DNA from: Trypanosoma brucei
Lineage: Eukaryota
Direction: 5' to 3'
Length of the DNA stretch: 64,000 bases
NCBI GenBank assembly: GCA_000002445.1
Contig: CP000068.1
Location: 1,216,001-1,280,000, forward strand
Shown here: piece after piece, positions 26,055 through 26,873 of the stretch
Numbering within the stretch: position 1 is the first letter of the stretch
Layout of the letters: each line of letters opens with the position of its first letter
Translations under genes and position numbers: made by a program
The notes under the pieces: model-generated
Seen by the model: only the letters and a program-made list of their open reading frames with translations
Told to the model about the DNA's origin: nothing
Database searches by the model: none

Positions 26055-26873
26055 TTAGAAAGAGAGGGCCGTGGCGGCAAGCATTACGAGAAGGAATTTC
26101 ATTGAAGTACCCACAGCCCCACTCGCTTCATCTTCCTTATCTTCATCGGAGTCGTCATCATCGATTTCAGGGAACTGAGCTGCCTCTTCTTGTGCCTCAC
26201 TCTTGGCATCATCAGCTGCATCGGCAGCCCTAACAGTCTCAGCGGTAGCTTTCTGAAGCTCCTCCAGTTTATTAGCCGCTTCATTCGCCTCCTGGAGGTA
26301 TTCCTCAGCGAAATCTTGCATGTACAGCCCTCTCAGGTTGTGAGCCGCTCTCGTAAGCGCTTCTGGCGTGACGTCGTCAGCAACAGCGGTGGCACATTCT
26401 TTAGCCAACTGCTTAATTGTTTCATTCCCTCCGTGCTCCGCGGCGCCCCTCAGCAAACCACTGAAGACACTTTCATATTCACTCTCAAAGCTGTCAAGCG
26501 CCCGGGCGAAGCGTTTTACTTCCATCGCTGCTGCTTCGGCACGTACAGATGCCTCATACGCCACCGTGGCGGCCTCCCGAGCTCTCTTTGCAGCCTGCTG
26601 CTGTTCCGATGTGCCGCCAACGGCACCCGCCTCCGCACGCTTCGCGGCCTTTTTGCCTTCCTTCGCTGCTTTTTTGCTTTCCTCCAATGCGCCTACAGCC
26701 TCGAACCTCCGCTCTTCCGTCAGTAGCGGAAGTTTACGCAGTTGTTTCGCCACCTCACATAGTGCTTTCGTCTGTTCCAATTCGGCTTCAAGATTATCGT
26801 TCGCGTAGGCGGTCGGTGCGAATATGAAGTGAAGACTGAGGCCGAGCACAAACAAAGCGCGGGAAATCATCAT
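26055..26873 (-). CDS. Ala/Glu-rich, predicted all-helical GPI-anchored surface protein (GARP/BARP/haptoglobin-haemoglobin-receptor-like architecture).
   Basis: Signal peptide MMISRALFVLGLSLHFIFAPTAYA. About 230 residues dominated by A/E/K/L with a heptad-like pattern. An acidic stretch EIDDDDSDEDKEDE is followed by small residues SGAVGTS and a 13-residue hydrophobic tail FLLVMLAATALSF, which looks like a GPI signal. Confidence 0.55.
   Translation of the reverse strand: MMISRALFVLGLSLHFIFAPTAYANDNLEAELEQTKALCEVAKQLRKLPLLTEERRFEAVGALEESKKAAKEGKKAAKRAEAGAVGGTSEQQQAAKRAREAATVAYEASVRAEAAAMEVKRFARALDSFESEYESVFSGLLRGAAEHGGNETIKQLAKECATAVADDVTPEALTRAAHNLRGLYMQDFAEEYLQEANEAANKLEELQKATAETVRAADAADDAKSEAQEEAAQFPEIDDDDSDEDKEDEASGAVGTSMKFLLVMLAATALSF

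Follow-up and report, generated by a model that had tools for sequence, protein, structure and literature searches.

The locus considered here lies in a window of 64,000 nucleotides of Trypanosoma brucei DNA, and the question that it raises is whether the minus-strand open reading frame (ORF) at 26055..26873 encodes a surface protein and, if so, whether that protein is a coat or a receptor. The original prediction was of an Ala/Glu-rich helical protein of the type of GARP, BARP and the haptoglobin-haemoglobin receptor (HpHbR).

Identity and sequence anatomy

The ORF list confirms the minus-strand ORF exactly as it was earlier described, running from ATG to stop at 26055..26873 with 272 codons plus the stop. 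The full 272 residues are identical to XP_845072.1 / AAZ11513.1 (exact-sequence look-up), which carries the database title 'hypothetical protein Tb927.5.4020' and comes from chromosome 5 of T. b. brucei TREU927. A sequence search of the PDB found that 6XZ6 chain A is 100% identical to residues 25-251 of the window protein (E = 1.4e-132), and this was checked residue by residue; the second match, T. congolense GARP (2Y44), has E = 0.0023 (phmmer). Macleod et al. (2020, Nat Commun 11:1326; PMC7067766) deposited 6XZ6, the structure of FHR with factor H domain 5. Comparison with that protein is comparison with the same protein, and nothing differs. The position is also as expected, on chromosome 5 between Tb927.5.4010 and the LSm7 gene Tb927.5.4030, as given by exact matches of the three neighbouring ORFs, on the same contig, to Tb927.5.4010 (titled a hypothetical protein), LSm7 and the mitoribosomal protein uS10m.

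Nothing contradicts this identification, and we regard it as practically certain that the ORF is the gene for the T. brucei complement factor H receptor FHR, Tb927.5.4020, with its published mechanism. Its identity, sequence anatomy and family membership come directly from the present analysis. The receptor has already been characterised, in a paper published in 2020 and extended in 2022-2026, and finding it again adds no new biology. The value of the case is that of a positive control, in which the fold family and the alternatives 'coat or receptor' were correctly inferred from raw sequence. The gene had been taken for a paralogue beside an Sm-like gene; the LSm7 neighbour is real, but the gene is the published FHR itself and not an uncharacterised paralogue. 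A tblastn search against the six-frame translation of the window returned no FHR paralogue, the only match being FHR itself and the next best having E = 0.47, and there is therefore no local FHR gene family. The features of the gene are as follows.

26055..26873, minus strand: complete coding sequence of FHR, Tb927.5.4020, 272 codons plus stop (ORF list; exact-sequence look-up; 100% identity to 6XZ6_A)
26949..26962, minus strand: polypyrimidine tract CCTTCTCTTTCTTC, preceding the FHR ATG by about 75-90 nt (sequence only)
26802..26873, minus strand: signal peptide, residues 1-24, MMISRALFVLGLSLHFIFAPTAYA (hydropathy; the crystal construct and the ordered structure start at residue 25)
26121..26801, minus strand: mature ectodomain, residues 25-251, 227 amino acids (identical to the 6XZ6 construct; composition)
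26772..26783, minus strand: codons E31 to Q34; the window protein has both of the residues, E31 and Q34, on which factor H binding depends (mutagenesis, pulldown and SPR in PMC7067766)
26199..26777, minus strand: GARP domain PF16731, three-helix-bundle core, residues 33-225 (hmmscan; AlphaFold2 helices)
26418..26426, minus strand: the one sequon for N-glycosylation, N150-E-T, at the membrane-distal tip in the loop that joins the second long helix to the third (sequon scan; loop 147-150 by DSSP of the model)
26355..26396, minus strand: Fam50 motif region, C160 and then V168-T-P-E-A-L173, a variant of Cys...VTxxSL (sequence; phmmer alignment to GARP; PMC3605285)
26121..26180, minus strand: acidic linker AQFPEIDDDDSDEDKEDEAS of residues 232-251, whose last residue, S251, is the predicted site of GPI attachment (sequence)
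26058..26120, minus strand: predicted signal for GPI addition, GAVGTSMKFLLVMLAATALSF (residues 252-272), lost when the anchor is attached (hydropathy; big-PI screen in PMC7067766)

The four elements originally described, namely a signal peptide, an A/E-rich helical ectodomain, an acidic linker and a GPI-like tail, are all present in the sequence by hydropathy and composition, the GPI anchor being predicted. The signal peptide was called by hydropathy alone. Residues 1-24 are hydrophobic, with a Kyte-Doolittle 11-residue mean of up to 2.04 and a hydrophobic part at residues 5-20, and N25 is preceded by A-Y-A, an A-x-A cleavage motif. Residue 25 is the mature N terminus, and amino acids 25-251 were used as the predicted mature polypeptide, in the published work (PMC7067766). 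These residues contain 21.6% A, 16.3% E, 7.9% L and 7.5% K. There are two cysteines, at 39 and 160, and one N-x-S/T sequon, at N150; the single glycan site was placed at the membrane-distal tip (PMC7067766), which agrees with the N150 loop in the AlphaFold2 model.

The linker has 11 D/E among its 20 residues (232-251). It is followed by a C-terminus that reads S251-G-A-V-G-T-S-M-K and then a hydrophobic tail, FLLVMLAATALSF, of mean hydropathy 2.29. The small S251-G-A, spacer and hydrophobic tail fit the usual pattern of a putative GPI addition signal. The site was predicted by a big-PI screen (PMC7067766), and FHR is described in the literature only as 'probably GPI-anchored' (PMC13186567). 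Upstream of the ATG, the tract at 26949..26962 is likely to be a signal for trans-splicing of FHR mRNA, as would be expected from the way in which trypanosome mRNAs are generally processed.

Two trivial mismatches with the text of Macleod et al. (2020; PMC7067766) were found. The paper has 'K46A, R47A' where the sequence has R46-K47, and it gives '227 residues including' signals, 227 being the mature length within the 272-residue precursor.

T. b. gambiense DAL972 FHR differs by seven substitutions (A80V, M117T, G149W, M185T, A231T, V254A and T268A), with E31 and Q34 unchanged. G149W (codon 149, window 26427-26429, minus strand) adjoins the N150 sequon, close to the ligand pocket at the membrane-distal tip. 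A variant from public reads (Logan collection) has five of the DAL972 substitutions together with T52M and T256N.

Family and fold

The Pfam family GARP (PF16731, 'Glutamic acid/alanine-rich protein of Trypanosoma') matches FHR with 173.6 bits and E = 4.4e-51 over profile positions 2-193 of 193 (hmmscan), the curated gathering cut-off being 27.4 bits. In addition, C160...VTPEAL aligns with the GARP sequence 'kkCtgaa-aeVTskSL' (phmmer alignment), with A in place of the S of VTxxSL; variants of the Fam50 motif Cys...VTxxSL were allowed for by Jackson et al. (2013; PMC3605285), who give Tb927.5.4020, a single-copy gene, as the T. brucei orthologue in subfamily iii of Fam50 in their cell-surface phylome. 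By profile and motif, FHR can be assigned to both Pfam GARP and Fam50.

The structural check suggested with the original prediction was then carried out. AlphaFold2 was run in single-sequence mode and gave a mean pLDDT of 65.4 and a pTM of 0.56, with residues 138-184 poorly modelled. The model is almost all helical, with long helices at 28-47, 53-84, 89-146 and 186-231. It agrees with 6XZ6 at a TM score of 0.46-0.55, and being of moderate confidence it adds little to the crystal structure. The search of this model against the PDB with Foldseek returned four matches only at E <= 0.001, all of them trypanosome three-helix-bundle surface proteins.

6XZ6_A: E = 3.8e-18
5VTL, metacyclic invariant surface protein: E = 9.2e-5, 20% identity
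2Y44, GARP: E = 4.5e-4, 27% identity
4E40, T. congolense HpHbR: E = 9.5e-4

Scores were weaker for T. brucei HpHbR (E = 0.19 or worse) and for ISG65 (E = 0.55). That FHR is an elongated three-helix bundle is established by the crystal structure of the identical sequence (PMC7067766), in which the bundle is about 90 Å long. The expectation of a GARP/BARP-type three-helix-bundle surface protein was thus borne out, by the PF16731 match as well as by the crystal; neither a non-bundle fold nor a confident match to an intracellular family was found. The proposed resemblance to HpHbR holds at the level of fold (4E40) but not at the level of sequence. Homology to HpHbR at sequence level was rejected, since the phmmer search of PDB sequences with FHR gave no HpHbR chain at E <= 10, and the likeness is one of fold and working principle only.

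FHR shares with T. congolense GARP (2Y44) and T. brucei BARP the Pfam family, the Cys...VTxxSL-type motif, a signal peptide, a GPI-type tail, an Ala/Glu-rich helical bundle and an insect-stage bias. The pairwise similarity to GARP is nevertheless weak (phmmer E = 0.0023; 27% identity by Foldseek). GARP and BARP coat the epimastigote stage, and no ligand is known for either, whereas FHR belongs to the single-copy Fam50 subfamily iii, is made from the stumpy to the mesocyclic stage, and has a ligand pocket between splayed helices. The second-best Foldseek match, the invariant surface protein Tb427.07.360 (5VTL), is labelled metacyclic in its PDB entry and is also a member of Fam50. Unlike FHR, it belongs to subfamily iv, and its locus is part of a chromosome 7 tandem array; subfamily iv has been linked to the salivary-gland stages by qRT-PCR of tsetse tissues (PMC3605285). 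No ligand for Tb427.07.360 is given in the cited sources.

Factor H binding and its interpretation

Macleod et al. screened the genome for predicted three-helix-bundle GPI-anchored proteins and picked Tb927.5.4020 (PMC7067766), by the same reasoning as that of the original prediction. The ligand, structure, expression and phenotype of FHR have all been demonstrated in the cited papers. In a GST pulldown with Tb927.5.4020, factor H was obtained from bovine serum. In SPR, KD was 153 and 114 nM with bovine factor H; domains 4-5-6 gave 167 nM, and domain 5 alone 562 nM. Mouse and human factor H were bound about 50-70-fold more weakly (12 and 8.7 µM respectively), and binding was abolished in the E31A/Q34A mutant. 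The crystal structure is ordered from 25 to 237, and a membrane-distal pocket binds factor H domain 5. The arrangement of FHR, factor H and C3b is a composite model, in which factor H domains 1-4 are free for surface C3b (all PMC7067766).

FHR is strongly regulated through the life cycle. It was below detection, at fewer than about 200 copies per cell, in slender bloodstream forms, was induced in stumpy forms, and reached about 200,000 per procyclic cell. Surface immunofluorescence located it on stumpy, procyclic and mesocyclic forms, and no FHR was detected on proventricular epimastigotes (PMC7067766). The transcript is midgut-specific in tsetse (PMC3378594), expression of Tb927.5.4020 is preferentially procyclic (PMC3605285), and depletion of ZC3H20/21 lowers FHR mRNA. 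A 2026 eLife paper reports FHR across the entire surface of the cell, as well as its induction in bloodstream forms grown in rabbit serum (PMC13186567).

FHR-null procyclic and bloodstream cells grew normally in culture, with mild attenuation in mice. Tsetse midgut infections were obtained in 31/114 flies with wild type and in 12/119 and 11/106 with the knock-outs. This phenotype was seen in transmission from infected mice and was absent when procyclic forms were fed without complement. Some labelled factor H and antibody were internalised by procyclic cells, and redundancy with other complement receptors was expected by the authors (PMC7067766). A 2023 review names FHR and ISG65 as the two known complement receptors.

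The mechanism proposed on this basis is that the 272-residue precursor would shed its 24-residue signal peptide and a 21-residue C-terminal signal, and that FHR would then be held on the outer leaflet of the plasma membrane, probably via a GPI anchor on S251, which is predicted only. The mature 227-residue protein stands as a GARP/Fam50 three-helix bundle of about 90 Å on its short acidic linker, with the second and third helices splaying at the membrane-distal end to form a pocket. This pocket, with N-terminal residues that include E31 and Q34, binds CCP domain 5 of host factor H, which would leave factor H domains 1-4 free to engage C3b on the parasite surface, so that the alternative complement pathway would be damped; this C3b-inactivation step is model-based in the paper (PMC7067766). 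The protein is nearly absent from slender forms, induced in stumpy forms, and abundant (about 200,000 per cell) in procyclic and mesocyclic forms; it is at these stages that the parasite encounters fresh blood in the gut of the tsetse fly. Deletion cuts the midgut infection rate to roughly half or one third. Few trypanosome receptors have a host ligand that is known. FHR is among them; it is a virulence factor for transmission, and it illustrates how a parasite recruits a host complement regulator in order to survive the blood meal in its vector.

Three other explanations have been weighed against this one. The suggestion that the sequence is a chance ORF, or a low-complexity artefact of an Ala/Glu-rich composition and not a gene, can be discarded outright. 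ORFs in other frames do overlap the FHR coding sequence (26190-26726 and 26368-26808, both on the plus strand), these being of the sort expected from a G+C-rich, Ala-rich coding region; against a chance origin, the Pfam score is far over the cut-off, the product has been crystallised and detected by antibody, and the knock-out has a phenotype. It is also very hard to maintain that FHR is a passive coat of the tsetse stages, similar to GARP and BARP, with no specific ligand and with factor H binding being incidental. Its membership of the same Pfam family and of Fam50, and its great abundance on procyclic forms, would both suit such a role. The binding is, however, specific, saturable and sub-micromolar, it is abolished by two point mutations, and the crystal has a dedicated pocket for it, so that a passive coat is largely refuted by mutagenesis and structure. 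Furthermore, FHR is lost in epimastigotes, which is the stage that makes GARP and BARP, and a passive coat does not fit the dependence of the knock-out phenotype on transmission from mice. A stage-specific coat or receptor had been foreseen; FHR proves to be a stage-regulated factor H receptor (PMC7067766) and does not fall in the class of epimastigote coats.

The remaining explanation is that FHR is chiefly an uptake receptor, similar to HpHbR, whose main role is endocytosis of factor H or of bound cargo, and not control of complement at the surface. This would be consistent with the fold match to 4E40 and with the partial internalisation of labelled factor H and antibody by procyclic cells. 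Against this, cells without FHR grow normally in culture in both the procyclic and the bloodstream form, the protein is spread over the whole surface and not concentrated at the pocket, and no relation to HpHbR was found in sequence. A main role in uptake is on balance very improbable, and recruitment of factor H for complement control is strongly preferred.

The HpHbR of T. congolense (4E40/5JDO) and of T. brucei (4X0J) is, similarly to FHR, an elongated three-helix-bundle receptor of GPI type (the anchor of FHR being predicted) with a host serum ligand and a membrane-distal binding site, and the fold of FHR matches that of T. congolense HpHbR with Foldseek E values of 9.5e-4 to 3.5e-3. HpHbR differs in its ligand, in its purpose (haem acquisition), in its copy number of 300-400 per cell, and in its stage (PMC13186567). 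ISG65, the T. brucei receptor for C3/C3b (PDB 7PI6), is likewise a helical-bundle surface receptor that counteracts the alternative complement pathway. Unlike FHR, ISG65 belongs to a different family and spans the membrane as a type I protein. Slender bloodstream forms express it, and C3 fragments are its direct ligands, whereas FHR recruits a host regulator; the structural match between the two is weak (Foldseek E = 0.55).

The strand switch and other features of the window

FHR is the penultimate gene of its minus-strand transcription unit, at a convergent strand switch. The plus strand carries the large ORFs as far as about 22.85 kb, and from 23.17 kb they lie on the minus strand (ORF list); this pattern therefore places a convergent strand-switch region in the window at about 22850-23170. 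The genes around it are as follows.

20331-21764, plus strand: A-type VSG-related gene Tb927.5.3990 (PF00913, E = 7.5e-76)
22342-22845, plus strand: 167-codon ORF, Tb927.5.4000 by position (ORF list)
23171..24085, minus strand: Tb927.5.4010, downstream neighbour of FHR and last gene of the minus-strand unit (ORF list, exact match)
27191..27469, minus strand: LSm7, Tb927.5.4030, upstream neighbour in the FHR transcription unit (Pfam LSM, E = 2.8e-13; database name 'U6 snRNA-associated Sm-like protein LSm7p')

Surface-protein genes thus lie on both sides of the strand switch (20331-24085), with the VSG-related gene on one side and FHR and Tb927.5.4010 on the other. tRNA genes are often found at strand-switch regions; a tRNA scan found none in the window.

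Tb927.5.4010 encodes 304 amino acids, with a signal peptide, 8 Cys within residues 44-120, 10 N-x-S/T sequons, a long polar region rich in Asn, Glu, Lys and Thr, and a hydrophobic C-terminal tail. Neither Pfam nor PDB sequences gave a match to it. The gene has been described as lying at a strand-switch region, as specific to African trypanosomes and as fast-evolving, with 92.7% identity between T. b. brucei and T. b. gambiense, and both a signal peptide and a GPI site have been predicted for its product (PMC2854126). It is a candidate surface protein.

The end of the plus-strand unit is a model site of base J/H3.V/PNUTS-dependent premature termination, which occurs before the last two genes and silences the VSG-related gene (PMC7055916). 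Among the supplementary genes of the PNUTS/JBP3 termination paper, Tb927.5.3990 was found, and Tb927.5.4020 and Tb927.5.4010 were not among the matches listed. Either of two further links may be entertained, although we consider this an unlikely prospect: that termination-based control of the minus-strand unit has a part in keeping FHR almost wholly silent in slender forms and in inducing it in stumpy forms or rabbit serum, or that Tb927.5.4010 is a second receptor for a host ligand, co-regulated with FHR.

The gap between the FHR stop and the start of Tb927.5.4010 measures 1969 bp (24086-26054). It has long polypyrimidine runs, for example at 25174-25204 and 25225-25244, and a low-complexity A+T-rich stretch near 25.3 kb, judged from the runs of Ile and Asn in the translation of an overlapping ORF. 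Presumably this gap holds the FHR 3' UTR, with ZC3H20/21-dependent stability elements.

Further afield, the region of about 6.3 kb upstream of the VSG-related gene (13988-20331) has a single ORF of at least 150 amino acids (16758-17285, minus strand), with no Pfam match, and this ORF density is unusually sparse for a trypanosome core region. Nine tandem ORFs at 54989-61389 on the minus strand, with a spacing of 736 bp, form a histone H4 array. In the one ORF of the array that was tested (54989-55501), the C-terminal ~100 residues are histone H4 (E = 1.4e-55 against chain 8COM_B of the T. brucei nucleosome). The 170-residue ORFs of the array are upstream extensions from TTG, and the copy at 57933-58418 has a shorter upstream extension. 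Tandem Repeats Finder returned nothing for the array, whose 736-bp period exceeds the 500-bp limit of the program; the repetition is plain from the way the ORFs are spaced. Finally, the minus-strand ORF at 27989-30442 encodes an 817-residue LysM-domain protein for which the databases have an identical T. b. brucei TREU927 entry. This protein shares a 90%-identity cluster with chain CJ (uS10m) of the small subunit of the T. brucei mitoribosome (6HIV and others). For a homologue of ribosomal protein S10 it is unusually large, and it bears a LysM domain.
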